This document shows positions 2,037-13,384 of a stretch of 13,384 nt of DNA, piece after piece. Source of the DNA: Caldithrix sp. GTDB taxonomy: Bacteria > Calditrichota > Calditrichia > Calditrichales > Calditrichaceae. Both the position numbers and the translations under genes were made by a program. Positions within the stretch are counted from its first letter, which is position 1. Each line of letters starts with the position of its first letter. The notes under the pieces were generated by a model. The model was not told the origin of the DNA and ran no database searches. It was given only the letters and a program-made list of their open reading frames with translations. The stretch spans positions 1 to 13,384 of the forward strand of contig WJIP01000195.1 in NCBI GenBank assembly GCA_014730185.1, read 5' to 3'.

Positions 2037-2085
2037 TGCTTTAGGCCTCTTGGGTTTAATGCATTAAAAGTGTGTATGCAGACGT

Positions 2086-3321
2086 CTACCATTTTTGATG
2101 ACCGGCAGATGCTCCTTTGACTTTATGTTTGTCCGGTACCACCCAGATATTATCTTCAATTTCCAGCTTAACATCATCCAGATAAACCGCTTTTCCGCAG
2201 CCGCCTTCCCGGAAATCGGTTACGATATCCACATGTTGGGCAGAACGATTCAGTTTGCCCTGCTCGAAAAACTGTTCCAGCTCTTTTGTGCCCTGTTCGG
2301 AGCTGGGATCATCCACATAACATTCGGGATAACTGGCACCGATGGCAATGTGCAGCGTGCCGCCGACTTTTTCCACAAACAACGGATGCTTCAACACTTT
2401 TTCAATACCGTTATTCATACCCAGGGCTACTTCACCCAGCCGATGTGAGCCCTCATCGGTTTCAATGATTTTTTCCAAGGTTTCACCATTTTTGTCCGCG
2501 GAATAATCGACAATTTTACCCTTCTCAAATTTCAGATAAATGCCCTGGATGGTCACGCCCACAAAAGACACCGGCAGGTCCACGAATATTTCGCCTTCAA
2601 CCGTGTTGGTGTTGGGGCTGGTAAACACCTCGCCATCAGGAAAATTGCGTTTGCCCGTGCACTTTACAATGTTACGCCCACCGATGTCCATTTTTAATTC
2701 CAATTGGCGCCCGTTGCCGGGATGCTCGGTCACAATACGTATGGTTTGGCTGTGATTGAGCAGTTGATAAATATCTTCTTCCACATCATTGAGCATGCGG
2801 GGATCGACCAGTGAAGCATTGACGATAACGCGGGCGTATTCTTCCAGTGTCATGCCCTCCAGATCGGCAAATCCCTGCGTGGGAAAAAGAGTTAGTACCC
2901 AGGGTTTAAGCAGCCTCAGGTTTTTGATGGGTTCATCCGCCCGCATAATTGCTTTGGATGTTTCGTCCGGTAGGTTGGCATAGAGTTCGGGATTTTCGGC
3001 GCCCAGAACTTCGATGTATTTGGTCATGGCTTTATATCTTTCTTTATGCCACTCGGGAACGCCTTCGATTTGTTCCTTCGATCCATGGCGAGCCATGGAG
3101 GCGCTCCACACTTTACCGCGGTCGTTATCCGGCGGCACAATATTCATATCGGCAATAGCGCCGGCAGCAAATATTTTATCCTGCAAGACAGAAAGCAGCG
3201 GCCAAGTAATGTGTTCACCTTTCAGCATAATAACATCTTCTTTTTTGATGCCGCCCAGGGAATAATCCAATAAATAATTCGCCCAGGTTTCCAGGTCTTT
3301 GCGGGGTAGGTTTACAGACAT
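2086..3321 (-). CDS. M29-family aminopeptidase (AmpS/PepS/aminopeptidase T-like)
   Basis: The ~410 aa length fits the family. The C-terminal half carries ETDEGSHRLGEVALG...GGTLHIAIGASYP...QHVDIV, which matches my recollection of conserved blocks in M29 aminopeptidases (ETDEGARRLGEVAL, HLALGNAYP, VHVDF). The track start at 3336 reads through the SD. The ATG at 3319-3321 (MSVNLPRK) is preceded by AAAGGAG at 5-nt spacing. Confidence 0.8.
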   Translation of the reverse strand: MSVNLPRKDLETWANYLLDYSLGGIKKEDVIMLKGEHITWPLLSVLQDKIFAAGAIADMNIVPPDNDRGKVWSASMARHGSKEQIEGVPEWHKERYKAMTKYIEVLGAENPELYANLPDETSKAIMRADEPIKNLRLLKPWVLTLFPTQGFADLEGMTLEEYARVIVNASLVDPRMLNDVEEDIYQLLNHSQTIRIVTEHPGNGRQLELKMDIGGRNIVKCTGKRNFPDGEVFTSPNTNTVEGEIFVDLPVSFVGVTIQGIYLKFEKGKIVDYSADKNGETLEKIIETDEGSHRLGEVALGMNNGIEKVLKHPLFVEKVGGTLHIAIGASYPECYVDDPSSEQGTKELEQFFEQGKLNRSAQHVDIVTDFREGGCGKAVYLDDVKLEIEDNIWVVPDKHKVKGASAGHQKW

Positions 3322-3643: not shown

Positions 3644-6600
3644 TTAGAAAAAGGCCCGGATTTCAGCCTGTCCGCTGTGGATTATGCGATCGAATTGAGA
3701 TTCATCGCGGCCATTGTAGAAGAACGTGAAAACGATGTTTTTAGCCACGGTATATTCTGCTCGAAGCTGCCATAATTGTGATAACCCTTCTTTTTTGCCC
3801 CGGGCCATTTCAAAAGGGATGGTAAAATCCAAAGGATTTTCAAAGACGTTCACATGCTGCCTGGAATATTCCCCGCTGATTCGGCCTTTTCCGGGGATGG
3901 CGTAGTCGATTCTGAATTTGGATAAAACGTACCACAGTTGCAGCGGATAGGATTCCACATCATTGATTTCCCGCCCATACTGGCCTTCCAGGCCGAATTC
4001 CCATCGGGTGAAAGGCCGATAGGATAGTCTTTGTTCACCGTAATAACCGGTAATGTCCCGATTGCGAATAGGACTGGCCGCACTGTAGCGGAATTTGCTT
4101 TTTAAAGTGGCTTCCGATTGTCCGCTGAAACGGCTGTTGATCCGCCAACTGCTGCGCAAGGCATAGGTTCGGTTCAGTCGATCCTCATTTTCACCGGCAT
4201 CTAAAAATTGATTGAACCGACTTTGATCGTATTTGAAACGCAGGCGAAAAGACAGATTGCGGTTTCGGCGCATGATATACAAATCCTGATCGTATTGTAT
4301 GACACCGCGAATGGTCTGGGCATTCTGGAAACTGGATACATTCAACAAATAGATATCATACAAATCGTCGCTGCCGGATTCCTCTTCAATGCGTAAACTG
4401 GATTCACTGCTTAATCGATTTAAAAAAGACTGCCAGCCCCCGCTCGGATTATCCCAGTAACGGTCGCCATCCAGGCGCAGACGGAAAGCGCTTTCCAGGT
4501 TGGTAATCGGCCTGAAGTTACCGGAGGGTAACACAAATAAAATATATTTTCCATCAGGATCGGGCACGTATTCCTGCAAATCCTCATCGAATCTCAGATT
4601 ACCCCGGCTTTCGCCCACATCCAGATAAATTTTTTCTTTGAGGGCCGTTTGTTCCGTGGAAATACGGTACAGCATATTGAAGTCGAAGGCACTTTTCCAG
4701 CGCTGATGACCCAGTTTGAGCTCAGCCAGATTGGTTTTCCGATCCTGCCAAACGGTATCCTGCACACTGGCATCGGCATAGAGTAATTTTAAGGTATCAA
4801 CTTTAATGGCTTCAAAGCGACGTGTATAATTCTTGGACCGACGGGTCAGCTGCACACTGGCATTGGTGTTTTGTAAGTTTTTCAGTTGCAGATCCAACCG
4901 GTGGGTATAAGTGGCGGCCTGTGGTAATAGCTGGTTGGTGTCCTGCGCATCATAAACCTTATCCTGTCGATATTCGGTCGCGATATGACCGGTAAAATAC
5001 TTCCATTTGGTAAAGTCGATTTGCATACCGGTATGATCATACTGAAATCCGCTGATGGTATTGCCCTGAATATTTTTGCGCTGCTCCCCGCGGTAGAATA
5101 CACGAGGCGTCCATTTCCATATTTCTTTTTGTAAATTTACTCTGTAACGTTGCCAGGTATTATTAACACCGGCCCGGGATAAACGGCTGTTTAGACGGGT
5201 ATAAAGGGCTTTTCCGGTAAATAGAGAGGGCCGGTCAAAATCAATTTGGGATTGCCAACGTTTGGATTTCATTTCTTTTTTTGCCAGATAACCCAGTTGC
5301 GATTGCAACGATAATTGATCGATGGGTCGATAATTCAGTTGGGTCTGTATACTTTTTTCCCGGTTATCGGTTAAACTGGGCTGTAAAACATTCCAGTAGC
5401 GCTGATAGTCGGGCCGATTGAGCCGGTCAATCGATTGAAAACGATTGTGCACATAACGGGCATTGATGTTAGCGGTTACTCGCCCAAAATCAGTTTGTCC
5501 AAGTTTTAATGCCTGGTCGGCAATGTTCAGGTGTAATTTGGCAGCACCGCCCATATTATCATCATCATCCACAGAAGAGAGTGTGTTTTTATCATAACGG
5601 GACAGGGCAGACTCGGTAGTTAACCGAATATTGGAAATCGGCTGCCAGGTTAAGCGAACGTCGGTCACGTCATGAGAAGCGGGCAGGGGGAGTAATTGAA
5701 CGGGTTCGTAATCCCCCCGCTGCGGGCCTATCCAGCGGTAAACACCCAGACGATCTCGGGTGTAGGAGCCCCGTTGCTTACCGACAAAAGAAAAGGTAAT
5801 CCGGTATGATCCGTTGTTATCGCCCACATATTTATAAATGGTATACGTTGTATTGTTGTATACCGTGTCCGTTTCAGCATAACTGCCGGAGCTGTCGGGG
5901 GTCAGGCGGGCACCTGCGGTAAACGCCTGTATGGGATCATCCCCGGCTTGCCTGATGATGGATTTATCCTCGGCGCTGAGCTCACCACCTTCTTCCAGGC
6001 TTTGCTGTGGATTGTCGGCTTCCCGGTAATAACGGACATCCAGTTGCAACTGGTCGTCAAACCACTGAGCGCCGTTTTCCACGCTGTAGACATTACGGTT
6101 GTATTGCTGCACGGCCGGAAAGTATTCAAAATCAATTTCAATGCGTGATTCACTGGTGATCAACCGTTGATTGGTAAAGGTAATCTGGCCGTTACCGTAT
6201 TCAATGGTATAATCGTTACTTTCACCACGTACCATTGGCTCCCCATTAATGAACACCTTTTCCGTGCCGGCCAGTACGATAATATCTTGACTACCGTCGG
6301 TAGCCGTTAATTGGTAAGGACCCTGGTTGCCTTCCTGCCCGATAAACTGCATGCTGTTGAAAAATCCGCGGGTGGCGGCCACTGTGGCCCCCAGATAGGT
6401 TTGGCCATATTGACCGCGCAGAGAGAGGCCCTGTAGTTTTCGCGAAAGATCGGCGAATTCCGAATTTTGATAGGTTAAATTCAGATCCCCTACGGTACCG
6501 TCCACATAAGGACTGCGGAACTGCACATATACTTTGTCGATTTCCTCCAGAGTCTGGGTGTTACCTTCGGGTTGGATGGGGGTCGCTTCATCGGTTAAGG

Positions 6601-7171
6601 CTCCGATAATTTCCACATTATCGGTAATCATGCCGGAAAGTTCCAAGTTCAACCCGGAATTCAGAGTAAAATCGCGGTTACTACCCACTTTTACACCCCG
6701 CATAATACTCCCGCTGGTGGATAATCCGGGAGGCATACCTGTAAAGGGGTTTTCGATATTGATCTGCCTGAGTTGGCGGTTGCCCTGTATGGTTTGTGTA
6801 CTGTCATCCGTGCGCATTTTTTCCGCTTCAAAGAGTGTATAGGTACGTTTCAGCTTCACTGGCAGACGGTTGTATACGATTCGAAGGGTATCCTCGATCG
6901 ATGGGTAGGGCATAAATCGAATGGTTTGAGAACGGTGGATTCGATAGTCGATTTCTTGTTGTAAAAGACGACTGTTGCGAGTGATTTGCAAGGTTTGCCA
7001 TTGAGGGCGATGATTTTCAGGGACCCGGAAGCTGAAGCGGGATTCACGTACTATAAGGGTGGTGTCGACTTTCCACGGATAGGCTGGTTTAATTATCTGA
7101 GCATTTGTTTTTTCTGCAAAAAATATCAGAGTGAATAAAAGCAGGCTGTATGTAAAAACGGACCGGTTCAC
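3644..7171 (-). CDS. Large secreted, probably outer-membrane beta-barrel, protein of unrecognised family (~1175 aa)
   Basis: The ORF is open from 7201 (TTG) with no internal stop over 3.5 kb. The GTG at 7169-7171 overlaps the upstream gene's TAG stop as TAGTG and yields a canonical signal peptide MNRSVFTYSLLLFTLIFFAEKTNA|Q. The C-terminus ends ...AEIRAFF, an aromatic terminal residue typical of OM beta-barrels. Composition is rich in Y/R/N/Q/S/T/G. I recognise no named domain. Confidence 0.6.
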   Translation of the reverse strand: MNRSVFTYSLLLFTLIFFAEKTNAQIIKPAYPWKVDTTLIVRESRFSFRVPENHRPQWQTLQITRNSRLLQQEIDYRIHRSQTIRFMPYPSIEDTLRIVYNRLPVKLKRTYTLFEAEKMRTDDSTQTIQGNRQLRQINIENPFTGMPPGLSTSGSIMRGVKVGSNRDFTLNSGLNLELSGMITDNVEIIGALTDEATPIQPEGNTQTLEEIDKVYVQFRSPYVDGTVGDLNLTYQNSEFADLSRKLQGLSLRGQYGQTYLGATVAATRGFFNSMQFIGQEGNQGPYQLTATDGSQDIIVLAGTEKVFINGEPMVRGESNDYTIEYGNGQITFTNQRLITSESRIEIDFEYFPAVQQYNRNVYSVENGAQWFDDQLQLDVRYYREADNPQQSLEEGGELSAEDKSIIRQAGDDPIQAFTAGARLTPDSSGSYAETDTVYNNTTYTIYKYVGDNNGSYRITFSFVGKQRGSYTRDRLGVYRWIGPQRGDYEPVQLLPLPASHDVTDVRLTWQPISNIRLTTESALSRYDKNTLSSVDDDDNMGGAAKLHLNIADQALKLGQTDFGRVTANINARYVHNRFQSIDRLNRPDYQRYWNVLQPSLTDNREKSIQTQLNYRPIDQLSLQSQLGYLAKKEMKSKRWQSQIDFDRPSLFTGKALYTRLNSRLSRAGVNNTWQRYRVNLQKEIWKWTPRVFYRGEQRKNIQGNTISGFQYDHTGMQIDFTKWKYFTGHIATEYRQDKVYDAQDTNQLLPQAATYTHRLDLQLKNLQNTNASVQLTRRSKNYTRRFEAIKVDTLKLLYADASVQDTVWQDRKTNLAELKLGHQRWKSAFDFNMLYRISTEQTALKEKIYLDVGESRGNLRFDEDLQEYVPDPDGKYILFVLPSGNFRPITNLESAFRLRLDGDRYWDNPSGGWQSFLNRLSSESSLRIEEESGSDDLYDIYLLNVSSFQNAQTIRGVIQYDQDLYIMRRNRNLSFRLRFKYDQSRFNQFLDAGENEDRLNRTYALRSSWRINSRFSGQSEATLKSKFRYSAASPIRNRDITGYYGEQRLSYRPFTRWEFGLEGQYGREINDVESYPLQLWYVLSKFRIDYAIPGKGRISGEYSRQHVNVFENPLDFTIPFEMARGKKEGLSQLWQLRAEYTVAKNIVFTFFYNGRDESQFDRIIHSGQAEIRAFF

Positions 7172-8082
7172 TAAAATACCAGATATCCTTTTATGATCCA
7201 ATTACCGGAAATGATGAACAGTTCACATTTGATTTGTTGATTCTCTTTTGGGCTTTGCCATGCCGCCACATCAACGGGATAGAATTCGGCATCCGGATTA
7301 TGCACTACAACGGGTTTGAATGATGTAATCTGTTGATTCGATATAAAGAGCGCGCCGCTGTCGCTATCCGTCACCAACGCCTGGCCATCCTTTAAAACAT
7401 CGATCCCTCGGGGATGGATCATTTGTTTATGGGAGGACTGACGCAGAAAATTGCCGAAGAAATCGAACTGTATCAGAGCTTGAAGTCCGACGTCGCTGAC
7501 AACCAATCGCTGCTCCTGCCAGATTTCCAATTGCCCCGGTTCCTTTAACCGTCCAATGCCGGAAGCATAATGACCGAAGGCCCGTTCCGCCGAACCATTT
7601 CGGTTGAATTTGATGATTTTGCTGTCACCCCGATCCAGTAAAAAAAGATCCTGCTGAGCGTTTACCGCACAGCTGAGGACTTCATCAAATTGATAATCAG
7701 TTACGGCACCGGGATTGCTTTCCAGAGATGAGATGTAGTTCATATTGCGGTCAAAACGTTGCACACGACGATTGTTATAGTCGGAGACATAAACATTGAT
7801 TATACTTTTGGTCCAGATATCCATGGGATAATTAAATTGCTCCCCCTGAAAACCGAAGCCCCCTACGGTTTTGATCAGTTTTCCCTGCCGATCAAAAATT
7901 TGCAAACGATGGTTACCGCTATCCACTACATAGACCAGACCGGCGGAATTTACGGTTAAAGCCTGCGGATCTTTAAATTGACCTGGTTGGCTTCCGCCAC
8001 CACCGAAACGGTGTTGTTCAAAAAAAGTTTGCGACAGTATCCCGATTGGCAGAAGACATAATAAAAGTATCCTGTAAACCAT
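7171..8082 (-). CDS. Secreted NHL-repeat (six-bladed beta-propeller) protein
   Basis: The signal peptide is MVYRILLLCLLPIGILSQ. NHL-type blades recur: GQFKDPQALTVNSAGLVYVVDSGNHRLQIFD, FNYPMDIWTKS..VYVSDYNNRRVQRFD, LKEPGQLEIWQEQRLVVSDVG, IHPRGIDVLKDGQALVTDSDSG. AAGGGA lies 8 nt upstream of the ATG. Confidence 0.75.
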   Translation of the reverse strand: MVYRILLLCLLPIGILSQTFFEQHRFGGGGSQPGQFKDPQALTVNSAGLVYVVDSGNHRLQIFDRQGKLIKTVGGFGFQGEQFNYPMDIWTKSIINVYVSDYNNRRVQRFDRNMNYISSLESNPGAVTDYQFDEVLSCAVNAQQDLFLLDRGDSKIIKFNRNGSAERAFGHYASGIGRLKEPGQLEIWQEQRLVVSDVGLQALIQFDFFGNFLRQSSHKQMIHPRGIDVLKDGQALVTDSDSGALFISNQQITSFKPVVVHNPDAEFYPVDVAAWQSPKENQQIKCELFIISGNWIIKGYLVF

Positions 8083-8762: not shown

Positions 8763-9026
8763 TTAATTCTGGACATTCTCCAGAACGCTGACGCGTTTTT
8801 TGGTTTTACCCATCCGTTCAAATTTAACATAACCATTTATTTTAGAAAACAATGTATCATCGCTACCGATTCCCACGTTTTCACCAGGATGAATTTTGGT
8901 ACCACGCTGACGCATAATAATAGCTCCGGCATTTACAAACTGCCCACCGAAGGCTTTTACGCCCAATCGTTTGGATTCACTTTCCCGGCCGTTTCTGGAA
9001 CTGCCAACACCTTTTTTATGGGCCAT
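8763..9026 (-). CDS. rpmA: 50S ribosomal protein L27
   Basis: [29 protein letters not shown]... is the canonical L27 N-terminus at 87 aa. The ATG abuts the rplU TAA (TAAATG), and the GGAG in the rplU 3' end serves as its SD. Confidence 0.95.
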
Positions 9027-9497
9027 TTAAGACTCCTTTTCTTCTTTCTTTGTTTTCTTGGGAGCGGCTTTTGGCTTACTCTCCGCCTTGGCTTTCGTTT
9101 TAGTCTGCGTGTCTTTTTTTACCGTCGCAGACTTAGCGTTCGTACTCTCATCAGCGGCTTTGTCTTTTTTTGGCGCTGCTTTAACTTTACCAATGTTATC
9201 AATTTGAATCAGTGTATACGGCTGCCGGTGCCCTTTTTTAACACGATAGCCTTTACGCCGTTTTTTCTTAAAAACGGTAATTTTTTTATCTTTGCCGTTT
9301 TCTACCACCGTTGCAGAAACCTGCATGTTTTTAACAACAGGATTACCGATCTGAGGTTTGCCTTTGTCGTCTTCGAAAAAAAGTACTTTATCAAATTTAA
9401 CGGTTTTTTTATTCTGCGTATCCAGCAGGGGCACGCGAAGCTTCTGATTCTGCTCAACTTTATACTGTTTTCCACCGATCTCCACAATGGCGTACAT
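9027..9497 (-). CDS. rplU: 50S ribosomal protein L21 with a ~55-aa Lys/Ala/Thr-rich C-terminal extension
   Basis: MYAIVEIGGKQYKVEQNQKLRVP... is the canonical L21 start. The ATG at 9495-9497 has AGGAG 8 nt upstream. The track's extra 9 codons begin at a TTG. The tail KAAPKKDKAADESTNAKSATVKKDTQTKTKAKAESKPKAAPKKTKKEEKES is low-complexity and basic. Confidence 0.9.
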   Translation of the reverse strand: MYAIVEIGGKQYKVEQNQKLRVPLLDTQNKKTVKFDKVLFFEDDKGKPQIGNPVVKNMQVSATVVENGKDKKITVFKKKRRKGYRVKKGHRQPYTLIQIDNIGKVKAAPKKDKAADESTNAKSATVKKDTQTKTKAKAESKPKAAPKKTKKEEKES

Positions 9498-9538
9498 TAT
9501 TCTATCTCCTAAAATTGAATTCAAAAAAATAAGCCTTT

Positions 9539-9746: not shown

Positions 9747-10091
9747 ATGAATATTTACCATGAACCGGCGGCTGAAATGAGTGCGAAAGCCCGGGATTTG
9801 ACACGGGCCTTGGCCAGCTTAAAGGAAGAAATTGAAGCTGTTGATTGGTACAATCAACGTGTGGATTTAACCGAAGATGAAAAATTAAAAAAACTGTTGG
9901 CCCATAATCGGGACGAAGAGATCGAACACGCTTGTATGACCCTGGAATGGTTAAGGCGTAACATGGATGGATGGGATGAACAGCTGAGATTGTATTTATT
10001 TACCGAAGATGATATAACCGACCCTGAAGACCATGATCAGGATTCGAATGCAGGTAAGGATTCGGATAATCTGGGTATTGGTGAATTATAG
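9747..10091 (+). CDS. Encapsulated ferritin-like protein (EncFtn-type encapsulin cargo) with a C-terminal targeting peptide
   Basis: EAVDWYNQRVD...LLAHNRDEEIEHACMTLEWLRRN...LRLYLFTE matches my recollection of the EncFtn ferritin-like core (ExxH-containing helices). The acidic linker ends in ...SDNLGIGEL, which fits the family-1 cargo-loading peptide consensus (G)SLGIGSL. GGGAGG lies 5 nt upstream of the ATG. The gene sits immediately 5' of the shell gene. Confidence 0.75.
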   Translation: MNIYHEPAAEMSAKARDLTRALASLKEEIEAVDWYNQRVDLTEDEKLKKLLAHNRDEEIEHACMTLEWLRRNMDGWDEQLRLYLFTEDDITDPEDHDQDSNAGKDSDNLGIGEL

Positions 10092-10106: not shown

Positions 10107-10904
10107 ATGATGGATATTTTAAAAAAAGGTTTAGCACCGATTACCGATCAGGCATGGCAGGTTATCGAAGAAGAAAGTCGCGAAATGTTAACAATGCATC
10201 TGACCGCCCGCCGGTTTGTAGATTTGGATGGCCCCAATGGCATCGCCTTCAGTGCGGTCTCTCTGGGGCAATTGGCTTTACCAAAAAATCAAAAAAAAGA
10301 CGAAGTGCAATATGGAATACACACTGTTTTACCCTTAATGGAAGTGCGCATGCCGTTTGATCTGAATATTTGGGAGCTGGATAATCTGCATCGGGGCAAA
10401 GAAAATATCGATTTAACAAATATGGAAAAGGCTGCTAAAAAAATTGCCCAGTTTGAAGAGCAGGCCATTTATTATGGTTTTGAAGGTGGCTCCATTCAAG
10501 GTTTGTATGAAAAAAGTGAGCATAAAAGCCGTCCGATGCCTAAAAATGCCGAACAAACCCTGAAAAGCCTTCCCGAGGGTATTCAAACGCTAAAGGATAA
10601 TGCCGTAGACGGTCCCTACCATTTGATAGTGAACCCCAATAAATGGCAGGAGATCAGCAGTTATGTCAAAGGGTATCCGCTAAAAAAGCAGGTTGAAAAT
10701 ATGCTTGAGGGTCGGGTGGTTACGTGTCCAAATATCAGCGGTATGTTTCTGGTACCCCTAAGAGGTGGTCATTTTAAACTGACGATTGGCATGGATTTGT
10801 CCATAGGCTATGAGTCGCACAATGCTAAGGAAGTGAAGTTGTATTTTACCGAATCTTTTACATTTCAGGTGCTCGATCCGGCTGCCTATATTATATTTGA
10901 ATAA
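10107..10904 (+). CDS. Family-1 encapsulin nanocompartment shell protein (HK97 fold, Linocin_M18-like)
   Basis: The 265 aa length is typical. The LKKGLAPITDQAWQVIEEESRE N-terminus and blocks such as WELDNLHRGKENIDL, GPYHLIVNPNKW, GGHFKLTIGMDLSIGYES and FTESFTFQV match blocks I recall from characterised T4-type encapsulins. AAGGAG lies 5 nt upstream of the ATG, which is 15 nt after the cargo stop. Confidence 0.9.
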   Translation: MMDILKKGLAPITDQAWQVIEEESREMLTMHLTARRFVDLDGPNGIAFSAVSLGQLALPKNQKKDEVQYGIHTVLPLMEVRMPFDLNIWELDNLHRGKENIDLTNMEKAAKKIAQFEEQAIYYGFEGGSIQGLYEKSEHKSRPMPKNAEQTLKSLPEGIQTLKDNAVDGPYHLIVNPNKWQEISSYVKGYPLKKQVENMLEGRVVTCPNISGMFLVPLRGGHFKLTIGMDLSIGYESHNAKEVKLYFTESFTFQVLDPAAYIIFE

Positions 10905-10976: not shown

Positions 10977-11172
10977 GCTAATCTGGTTAAGAATGCGTAA
11001 TTTGTTTGGTTCAGCCATTGAAACCAATGGGTATGGTTGATTTCTTTAGAGAGAGGAGTCAAAAATGGCGAAAAAAGAAGTCGGTTGCGCTCGACCGACA
11101 GGAGCACGCGTTGGTGAATCGTCTGCCGATGAAATAACCGTTAATGAACAGAAAGAAAAAGAGGAGAAAGTT

Positions 11173-11781
11173 ATGAGCACGGCAAAAGTAGGGGCAAAAG
11201 CCCCGGATTTTCAGGCGCCGGCTTATTTTAAAGGGGAATTCACGGAGGTGCAACTTTCCGATTTCCTGGGTAAGTGGGTGCTGTTATGTTTTTATCCCGG
11301 TGACTTCACATTCGTTTGAGCGACTGAAGTGTCAGCGGTCGCTGCCAACTATGATACATTACAGGAACTTGGAGTACATGTTATCTCCGTGAGCGTCGAT
11401 AGTCAGTTTGTCCATAAAGTTTGGAATGATCAAGAGCTATCCAAGATGATCGATGGAGATATTCCCTTTCATATGGCCTCGGATGGTTCCGGAGAGGTAG
11501 GCAAGATTTATGGAGTATACGATGAAATGGCTGGTGTTGAGTTGCGTGGCCGTTTTATCATCGATCCGGATGGCGTTGTTCAGGCCATGGAAGTGATGAC
11601 CCCTCCTGTAGGGCGCCAGCTCGCCGAGACGATCCGGCAGGTTAAAGCCTTTCAGCATGTGCGGGCCACATCCGGTGCGGAAGCTTGCCCGGCAGGATGG
11701 GAACCCGGAAAACCCACACTCAAACCTGGGCCTGCTCTGGTGGGCAATGTATGGAAAGAGTGGAAACCCACAAAATTGTAA
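11173..11781 (+). CDS. Selenocysteine-containing 2-Cys peroxiredoxin (AhpC/TSA family); the in-frame TGA at 11317-11319 is read as Sec
   Basis: Track ORFs 11065..11319 and 11329..11781 lie in one frame separated only by TGA. The joined product reads ...[28 protein letters not shown]...[12 protein letters not shown]...[11 protein letters not shown]...[18 protein letters not shown]. This is the canonical FTFVCPTE peroxidatic-Cys motif with TGA at the Cys, plus the EVCPAGW resolving-Cys motif. At 202 aa the length is standard for a Prx. GAGGAG lies 6 nt upstream of the ATG at 11173. An alternative in-frame ATG at 11065 also has AGGAG. Confidence 0.75.
11319..11343 (+). promoter_or_regulatory. 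Candidate bacterial SECIS hairpin immediately 3' of the UGA
   Basis: A 6-bp stem agcgac(11319-11324)/gtcgct(11338-11343) encloses a 3-bp upper stem tga/tca with apical loop AGUG 9-12 nt after the UGA. The position and GU-containing apical loop fit a bSECIS. An alternative fold, CG/CUGA-AGUG-UCAG/CG with a bulged A, gives the same apex. Confidence 0.5.
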
Positions 11782-12344: not shown

Positions 12345-13384
12345 ATGAGGCATTTTTACTCTTATAGGTTGCTGACTTTATTAATATTGTTGGCGCCTGG
12401 AATAATTTTCAGCCAATTATCGGGTACCTATACCATAGGAGCGGGCGGGGACTACACGACCTTCTCAGATGCAGCGGATGATCTTAATACCGATGGGGTA
12501 ACCGGAACGGTAACGTTCGATGTTATCAGCGGTTCTTACAATGAGCAGTTTGCAATCGGTGGGATAAGCGGGGTGAGCGCATCCAATACCGTTACCTTTC
12601 AAGCTCAATCCGGAGACGCAGCTGATGTAACGATTTCATATACGGCCAGCGGTTCATCCGATAATTATATTGTACAATTGGATAACACTGATCATATCAT
12701 GTTCAAAAATTTATCATTTAATACCACGGGCTCAAGTTACGCCAGAGTATTCGACCTGCGAAATAATGTAGATCATTTAACGATTGATCAATGCGAATTA
12801 TCCGGAAGTCCAACAACTTCGAGCAGTACCAATTATGCTCTTATTTATGGAGATGATCTTAACGGTACAGATTTTCTGATTACCGATAACACTTTCATTG
12901 ATGGTTCATCAGCGGTGTATCTAAGGGGTGTCAGTTCTGCAAGCAGAGCAAGCAACTCAGTCATTGAAAACAATGATATTTCCGGCGACCTCTATTATGG
13001 CATTTATTTAAGCTATTTCAATAACCATGAAATCACGCAAAATTTGTTGGAAGTTCGCAACTATGGATTCTATCTGCAGGATACCGATGGACGTGTGAGG
13101 GTGGAAAATAATCGTTTACAGACCCGTTTAAGTTACGGTATTTATATAGTAAGTAGCGAGGGCAATGCGGATCGTCTGAGAATTGCCAATAACTTTTTAA
13201 GCAATACTTATACAGGTACGAATTATGGTTTATACACCAACAACAATTCCAATTTGGACATCTACCACAACAGCGTTCATCTGACGCGATCGTCAAGTGG
13301 CTATGCCCTATACCAGACGGGCAGCGGCAATGACATCAACATCGTCAATAACATTTTTGCCAATTTCGGCGGCGGCTATGCTAC
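12345..13384 (+). CDS. Secreted right-handed parallel beta-helix (pectate-lyase-fold) repeat protein, 5' part; continues past the window end
   Basis: My own translation from the ATG at 12345 reads MRHFYSYRLLTLLILLAPGIIFSQLSGTYTIGAGGDYTTFSDAADDL...VIENNDISGDLYYGIYLSY...RVENNRLQTRLSYGIYIV...IANNFLSNTYTGTNYGLYTNNNSNLDIYHNSVHL... This shows a signal peptide and repeated NNx(I/L)...YG(I/L)Y PbH1-like coils. The ORF is open to base 13384. GGGGG lies 8 nt upstream of the ATG. It is absent from the track because it has no stop. Confidence 0.7.
   Translation, partial: MRHFYSYRLLTLLILLAPGIIFSQLSGTYTIGAGGDYTTFSDAADDLNTDGVTGTVTFDVISGSYNEQFAIGGISGVSASNTVTFQAQSGDAADVTISYTASGSSDNYIVQLDNTDHIMFKNLSFNTTGSSYARVFDLRNNVDHLTIDQCELSGSPTTSSSTNYALIYGDDLNGTDFLITDNTFIDGSSAVYLRGVSSASRASNSVIENNDISGDLYYGIYLSYFNNHEITQNLLEVRNYGFYLQDTDGRVRVENNRLQTRLSYGIYIVSSEGNADRLRIANNFLSNTYTGTNYGLYTNNNSNLDIYHNSVHLTRSSSGYALYQTGSGNDINIVNNIFANFGGGYA

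Follow-up and report, generated by a model that had tools for sequence, protein, structure and literature searches.

A predicted selenocysteine-containing peroxiredoxin gene, prxU, and the conserved selenocysteine insertion sequence hairpin that follows its UGA codon in a Caldithrix sp. contig

The forward strand of Caldithrix sp. contig WJIP01000195.1 (assembly GCA_014730185.1; the whole 13,384-nucleotide [nt] stretch analysed is here called the window) carries a reading frame at positions 11065 to 11781 that is split by a single TGA at 11317 to 11319 into open reading frames (ORFs) of 84 and 150 amino acids (aa). Is this TGA a stop codon in a damaged gene, a codon for a standard amino acid, or a signal for the insertion of selenocysteine (Sec)? 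A preliminary description, made from the sequence alone, had reported the two same-frame ORFs and proposed that together they encode a selenoprotein peroxiredoxin (Prx) of the PrxU type. Translation agrees with the reported ORF structure, and we conclude with high confidence that the frame is an intact prxU gene for a thioredoxin-dependent peroxiredoxin in which Sec85 is the predicted peroxidatic residue. A Sec-type PrxU is favored because the product matches the PrxU equivalog model, the TGA is universal among the relatives examined, the codons downstream of it are under purifying selection, and a covarying selenocysteine insertion sequence (SECIS) hairpin follows it. The coordinates of the features discussed are collected in Table 1.

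When the TGA was replaced by a Cys codon, the product scored 407.2 bits against the curated NCBIfam equivalog NF040737 ("peroxi_PrxU"), which has a cutoff of 270 bits, and its residues 6 to 236 matched profile positions 2 to 232 of 233. The Pfam matches of the Cys-substituted product were AhpC-TSA (5.7e-38), Redoxin, and 1-cysPrx_C, whereas TIGR03137, the AhpC equivalog, was missed (191 bits versus a cutoff of 272). Residues 37 to 222 align to the structures of typical 2-Cys Prx proteins (E value, ~1e-45), and both catalytic positions are matched. The TGA of FTFV-TGA-ATE falls on the Cys of FTFVCPTE, which is the peroxidatic Cys of PDB entry 4fh8, and the resolving Cys of EACPAGW is intact, both as the preliminary description had stated. 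Its choice of the ATG at 11065 as the start is likewise borne out by the model match, which extends from residue 6, and by the conservation of this start together with a Shine-Dalgarno (SD) sequence.

A scan at one genome per species yielded 593 relatives, the best 80 of which (L001 to L080) were examined; with the window, these make up a set of 81 sequences. A TGA is present at the homologous codon in all of these 80 best relatives, which include members of KSB1, Marinimicrobia, Cloacimonadota, Chloroflexota, Acidobacteriota, Desulfobacterota, NC10, Zixibacteria, and Spirochaetes, as well as Thauera and Thiobacillus. The 150 codons that follow the TGA align without gaps to those of the eight closest relatives and differ from them by 61 to 77 synonymous and 18 to 29 nonsynonymous changes, and the ratio of the two is the same as that in the 47 Prx-domain codons that precede the TGA.

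These data bear on the possibility that an ordinary 2-Cys peroxiredoxin gene has suffered a nonsense change from TGC or TGT to TGA, either in the genome as a pseudogene or as a sequencing error. Only one base change would be needed, and gene callers do split the ORF. However, the gapless downstream half, with about three to four synonymous changes for each nonsynonymous one, is constrained, and a pseudogene is therefore excluded. The 80 relatives all share the TGA, a conserved SECIS follows it, and the whole ORF fits the PrxU model end to end, so that this explanation is effectively refuted. The preliminary description had named degeneration in close relatives as grounds for rejecting a selenoprotein; the relatives have instead kept the TGA and, in the eight closest, an ungapped coding sequence after it. 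Alternatively, a standard amino acid could be inserted at the TGA, through either genome-wide reassignment (genetic code 4 or 25) or near-cognate read-through as Trp or Cys after a loss of Sec decoding. Database gene calls seem to speak for this, as W stands at the Sec position in 98 of the 120 nearest database proteins (P0001 to P0120), but this W is an artefact of metagenome gene callers that use code 4 or 25 and amounts to a systematic mis-annotation. The nine credible ORFs of the window (~3,800 codons) contain 1 in-frame TGA and 51 TGG codons, and the sulfotransferase gene of the window terminates at TGA, so that codes 4 and 25 are excluded, and the earlier statement that TGA is a genuine stop elsewhere in the window holds. 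Moreover, the only in-frame TGA is at the position of a catalytic Cys or Sec, the stem covariation and the invariant G-U apex described below point to selection for recognition by SelB, and prxU is linked to selA in relatives. We consider decoding as a standard amino acid to be extremely improbable.

The Sec-type reading predicts a SECIS close to the UGA, and a conserved hairpin is found at 11330 to 11347. It was tested on a gapless alignment of 80 sequences, in which columns 26 to 33 and 36 to 43 correspond to window positions 11330 to 11337 and 11340 to 11347. In this alignment, 92.7% of the cells are paired, and there are 67 double-change cells, a number reached in none of 500 shuffles; the covariation score is 0.313, compared with 0.12 or less when the partners are slid. 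Pair 30-39, which joins the third bases of a Ser codon and an Ala codon, is GC in 49 sequences, AU in 24, CG in 5, and UA in 2, with no breaks, and pair 33-36 is GC in 70 and AU in 10, also unbroken. Compensatory changes occur at four stem pairs, mostly at synonymous sites, and at pair 28-41 they extend to the protein, where Ser changes to Ala along with a change of Asp to Ala or Ser. The apical G34 and U35 (G11338 and U11339 of the window) are invariant. RNAalifold independently found five of the eight pairs and detected no conserved lower stem in the same 80 sequences.

The top of the hairpin also distinguishes TGA forms from Cys forms of the gene. The Ala-Val dipeptide encoded there (GCR-GUY) is present in 97 of the 98 database TGA forms that are called "W," versus 6 of the 20 Cys forms, true or apparent, and the three distinct genes with a confirmed TGC are without the GCR-GUY core. 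Judging from these sequence comparisons, the constraint on the hairpin top appears to travel with the TGA. We infer that the hairpin at 11330 to 11347 is the SECIS of the PrxU family and functions in Sec insertion.

According to the published model of the bacterial SECIS (bSECISearch criteria; PMC13188914), the distance from the UGA to the apical loop is 16 to 37 nt, the upper stem has 4 to 16 bp, the minimum free energy is -7.5 kcal/mol or lower, and a G is present in the first two loop positions. The hairpin at 11330 to 11347 lies within the limits of distance and stem length (17 nt from the UGA to G11337; 7 to 8 pairs), and its loop, which begins with G and has G or U next and can be taken either as G-G-U-C at 11337 to 11340 or as a G-U on top of a covarying pair (G-C or A-U), conforms to the loop rule. 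The preliminary description had placed a SECIS-like hairpin elsewhere, at 11319 to 11343. That stem-loop exists: it is what the isolated segment adopts at minimum free energy (-11.6 kcal/mol), it is possible in free RNA, and it does have a GU in its loop (AAGUGUCAG). However, its energy does not stand out from that of dinucleotide-shuffled sequences (z = -0.48), 61 of 200 of which fold equally well. In the 80-sequence alignment, 80.5% of its cells are paired, its covariation of 0.028 equals that of shuffles, and breaks affect pair 15-39 in 56 relatives, pair 18-36 in 25, and pair 21-33 in 32. Nor does it have the bacterial SECIS geometry claimed for it, as it lies 7 nt from the UGA, short of the 16 to 37 nt of the model, and neither of its first two loop positions is a G. 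Because its 5' arm starts inside the UGA, it must be unwound at decoding, and it could hardly persist with the UGA in the A site. The hairpin at 11319 to 11343 is not conserved and, as judged from the alignment, is very unlikely to be the functional SECIS. Covariation thus locates the PrxU SECIS where single-sequence folding picks the wrong hairpin, which calls for caution in SECIS prediction.

Some observations weigh against the assignment of prxU as a Sec-encoding gene with its SECIS at 11330 to 11347. In the window, this hairpin has an energy of only -5.4 kcal/mol with its U/C mismatch unpaired, as opposed to the model cutoff of -7.5 kcal/mol, and it is outfolded by the nonconserved competing hairpin at 11319 to 11343 (-11.6 kcal/mol). 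An Rfam scan of the whole window with E values of up to 1 gave no match and thus placed the SECIS in no curated RNA family. In addition, a tRNA scan of the 13.4-kb window found no tRNA, including no tRNA-Sec. The mismatch (U11332/C11345) is common to the window and its 17 closest relatives, and across the loci the median energy of the SECIS is -10.1 kcal/mol, with values of -7.5 kcal/mol or lower in 51 of 80. Scans of 60 related loci found no tRNA-Sec either, and its absence from the window and from these loci is uninformative because the Sec machinery need not be linked to prxU. No Sec-machinery gene was found within the window.

In six beta- and gammaproteobacterial loci (L017, L015, L019, L021, L024, and L066), selA is located directly 3' of prxU. 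The selA of L017 matches TIGR00474 with 591 bits, and selA homologues adjoin prxU in the other five. In L017 (3764 to 6591), an ORF starting MLIGTAGHIDHGKTTLL follows selA, and by eye we take its N terminus to be SelB-like. The adjacency of selA in relatives ties prxU to the Sec machinery and is indirect support for the Sec-type reading. Across phyla, there is no conserved prxU neighborhood; the largest cluster comprises 6 of the 80 loci, and selA is the one informative cluster. Desulfoferula mesophila (L081, 6061 to 6723) has a PrxU homologue with a true Cys codon, TGC. About 2.3 kb downstream of this Cys-form homologue, a 348-aa AIRS/AIRS_C protein is encoded, which in size and domains fits SelD and may be SelD.

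How the two hairpins might succeed each other can be outlined as follows. With a ribosome at the UGA, the downstream mRNA would form the short hairpin at 11330 to 11347, the apex of which would present the invariant G-U 18 nt past the UGA. By analogy with Escherichia coli fdhF, SelB with GTP and Sec-tRNA(Sec) would bind this apex and compete with RF2 to bring Sec into the A site. The hairpin at 11319 to 11343, which starts at the A of the UGA, would be melted in the ribosomal mRNA channel during UGA decoding, and the melting would free its 3' arm, so that the conserved hairpin could form at the mouth of the channel. As predicted from the family, peroxide would be reduced by the product via a selenenic acid at Sec85. 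In the window copy, Cys208 of the partner subunit could resolve the selenenic acid as in typical 2-Cys Prx proteins, and thioredoxin would recycle the enzyme.

The preliminary description called the protein a 2-Cys peroxiredoxin, which is correct for the window copy but does not extend to the family. Only 25 of the 81 PrxU genes, that of the window among them, encode the C-terminal resolving Cys (xCP[A/S]GW), and 48 have Thr at this position, whereas an N-terminal Cys is found in 77 of 81. This second Cys lies in an N-terminal arm. In 76 of the 81 sequences, an ORF start about 84 codons before the TGA is followed by the motif M-[A/E]-[E/D]-x-x-x-G-C-A-R-[P/V/T]-T-G-x-V-[V/L]-G-E, in which the Cys is invariant; one further sequence (L072) has the variant motif GCQRPAV, which brings the number with the arm Cys to 77. 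An SD-like motif precedes the long-form start in 73 of 76 relatives. The third positions of the arm motif codons are free (~1.7 to 2.0 bits), whereas positions 1 and 2 are constrained, which shows selection on the motif at the protein level. The spacing between the arm Cys and the Sec is nearly fixed, at 73 to 80 residues, and the linker between them is of low complexity. No solved structure covers the arm. In the AlphaFold model of a Cys-form relative (P0077), the pLDDT is 60 to 73 for arm residues 1 to 20 and below 50 for the linker.

The beginning of the Prx domain carries another conserved signal. An ATG lies 47 to 48 codons upstream of the Sec codon in 78 of the 81 sequences, and each of the 78 has an embedded SD sequence similar to AAGGAG. 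The ATG at 11173 is probably a second initiation site, from which a short form of 202 aa would be made, and the conservation of the internal SD sequence and ATG suggests that prxU gives rise to a long (238-aa) and a short (202-aa) isoform. The conserved "KE" dipeptide in the linker is accounted for by the internal SD sequence embedded there. The PrxU of Eubacterium acidaminophilum is reportedly ~203 aa long, which would match the short form. As to the long form, it could be speculated that Cys8, ~76 residues before Sec85 on a disordered tether, is an intramolecular resolving or protecting thiol that forms a selenenylsulfide with Sec85 and replaces the C-terminal Cys missing from most of the family. 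We regard such a dual-start arrangement with a tethered thiol as doubtful. Because the arm occurs both with and without the C-terminal Cys and shows no anticorrelation with it, the idea of a replacement is weak. In the searchable literature, we found no description of the arm or of the internal start; of all points in this analysis, only these two, the arm with its invariant Cys and the conserved internal start, may be new.

An EncFtn gene and a family-1 encapsulin shell gene precede prxU. In likeness to known family-1 encapsulin cargo, prxU is a close same-strand neighbor of the encapsulin gene, both proteins have roles in oxidative stress, and the short terminal motif of PrxU on a disordered linker resembles the architecture of cargo proteins. 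In difference from such cargo, the arm is present in 77 of the 81 PrxU sequences, yet neither an encapsulin nor an EncFtn gene is found within 3 kb of prxU in any of the 80 other loci. Furthermore, the window PrxU has no LGIGxL-like targeting peptide, unlike EncFtn. PrxU was therefore rejected as encapsulin cargo, given that both a targeting peptide and co-occurrence are lacking, and we treat the adjacency as lineage specific and not as evidence of a cargo relationship.

The other genes near prxU include rplU and rpmA, which were recognized by their sequence motifs. A 207-aa ORF at 8889 to 9512 (+) was dismissed as a gene because it is a spurious Phe-rich frame antisense to these two. Further upstream, the minus strand encodes an NHL-repeat protein and a large protein without a Pfam match, and M29 peptidase, PIG-L deacetylase, and sulfotransferase genes were identified there on the basis of Pfam. 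The window holds no other credible TGA-split ORF pair; a pair at 2068 to 2697 (+) was rejected as a further recoded gene, being antisense to the M29 peptidase gene. The ORF that runs off the end of the window may encode a secreted beta-helix-type protein.

Table 1. Positions of prxU, its signals, and neighboring genes in the window
Feature	Position	Strand	Remarks
prxU coding sequence, long form	11065..11781	+	238 codons including predicted Sec85; stop codon TAA at 11779-11781; from translation, NF040737, and Pfam
SD sequence AGGAG	11054..11058	+	6 nt 5' of the long-form ATG at 11065; read from the sequence
N-terminal arm motif, residues 7-18	11083..11118	+	Cys8 codon at 11086-11088
Internal AGGAG (11162-11166) and in-frame ATG (11173-11175)	11162..11175	+	Start of the Prx domain; predicted 202-aa short form
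UGA, predicted selenocysteine codon (Sec85)	11317..11319	+	Within the PxxxTxxU motif (PGDFTFVU)
Hairpin of the preliminary description	11319..11343	+	Arms AGCGACUG/CGGUCGCU, loop AAGUGUCAG; 8 bp, -11.6 kcal/mol
Predicted SECIS hairpin	11330..11347	+	5' arm 11330-11337, apex G11338 U11339, 3' arm 11340-11347
Cys208 in EACPAGW	11686..11688	+	Aligns with the Cys in EVCPAGW of 4fh8, the canonical C-terminal resolving residue in 2-Cys Prx
1185-aa ORF	3644-7201	-	No Pfam match; start overlaps the end of the NHL-repeat gene
NHL-repeat protein gene	7171-8082	-	
rpmA (L27)	8763-9026	-	By sequence motifs
rplU (L21)	9027-9524	-	Lys-rich C-terminal tail; by sequence motifs
EncFtn gene	9747-10091	+	C terminus ...DNLGIGEL
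Family-1 encapsulin shell gene	10107-10904	+	160 bp 5' of prxU, same strand
ORF running off the window end	12345-13384	+	Signal-peptide-like N terminus MRHFYSYRLLTLLILLAPGIIFSQ, then repetitive Asn/Gly/Ser/Thr-rich sequence

In an annotation, both ORF fragments belong in a single prxU selenoprotein gene in which codon 85 is Sec. Metagenome gene callers in many cases wrongly put Trp at the Sec position of PrxU family members or split the gene. The preliminary description had expected automated annotation to call a pseudogene or two fragments, which overstated the difficulty, and it had regarded Sec-containing peroxiredoxins as rare. They are in fact abundant in metagenomes and have been known since 2001, so the assignment of the window gene is correct but not novel. 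PrxU was originally described for Eubacterium acidaminophilum (Sohling et al. 2001, Biol Chem 382:979, as cited in PMC8533274 and PMC7231847). A Sec-containing Prx with a TxxU motif is an established prokaryotic selenoprotein (PMC13188914; the motif is also given in PMC1088965), Sec-Prx proteins are present in the selenoproteomes of many anaerobes (PMC1794560), and PrxU was detected in a Sulfobacillus proteome (PMC7409299).

The predicted SECIS of prxU can be compared with that of E. coli fdhF, the minimal SelB-binding hairpin. The fdhF loop is GGUC too, and in both mRNAs a short hairpin begins ~11 nt after the UGA. Counted from the U of the UGA, the G-U is located at positions 22 and 23 in prxU and at G23/U24 in fdhF, and the prxU stem spans positions 14 to 31, compared with 15 to 31 for the minimal fdhF element (PMC8659212). 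The apical G-U of the prxU hairpin is exposed, as in fdhF, and sits on a covarying closing pair (G-C or A-U). The prxU hairpin differs in that the conserved bulged U17 of fdhF is absent; the U at position 16 faces A, G, or C, and of 80 sequences, 53 have it paired and 18, with the window among them, have it mismatched. It also differs in having no conserved lower stem.

With the typical 2-Cys peroxiredoxins of the Prx1/AhpC subfamily (PDB 4fh8, 1we0, and 1qmv; TIGR03137), the window PrxU shares the fold and the active-site motifs, and both FTFV[C/U]xTE and E[VA]CPAGW are conserved in it. It departs from them in having a predicted Sec in place of the peroxidatic Cys and in falling below the AhpC equivalog cutoff, and its N-terminal arm of 36 residues, with the invariant Cys, has no counterpart in the solved structures.

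The closest known system is PrxU itself, as defined by NF040737. The host here is an uncultured bacterium, the closest PrxU sequences (~85% identity) are from KSB1 and Marinimicrobia metagenome-assembled genomes, and, unlike most of the family, the window copy has kept its C-terminal resolving Cys. The window protein agrees with PrxU in several respects: it scores above the equivalog cutoff over its full length, has the predicted Sec at the peroxidatic position within PxxxTxxU, carries an N-terminal arm that lies inside the model, and falls under the product name thioredoxin-dependent peroxiredoxin. The window prxU is thus an ordinary member of an abundant and long-known selenoprotein family.

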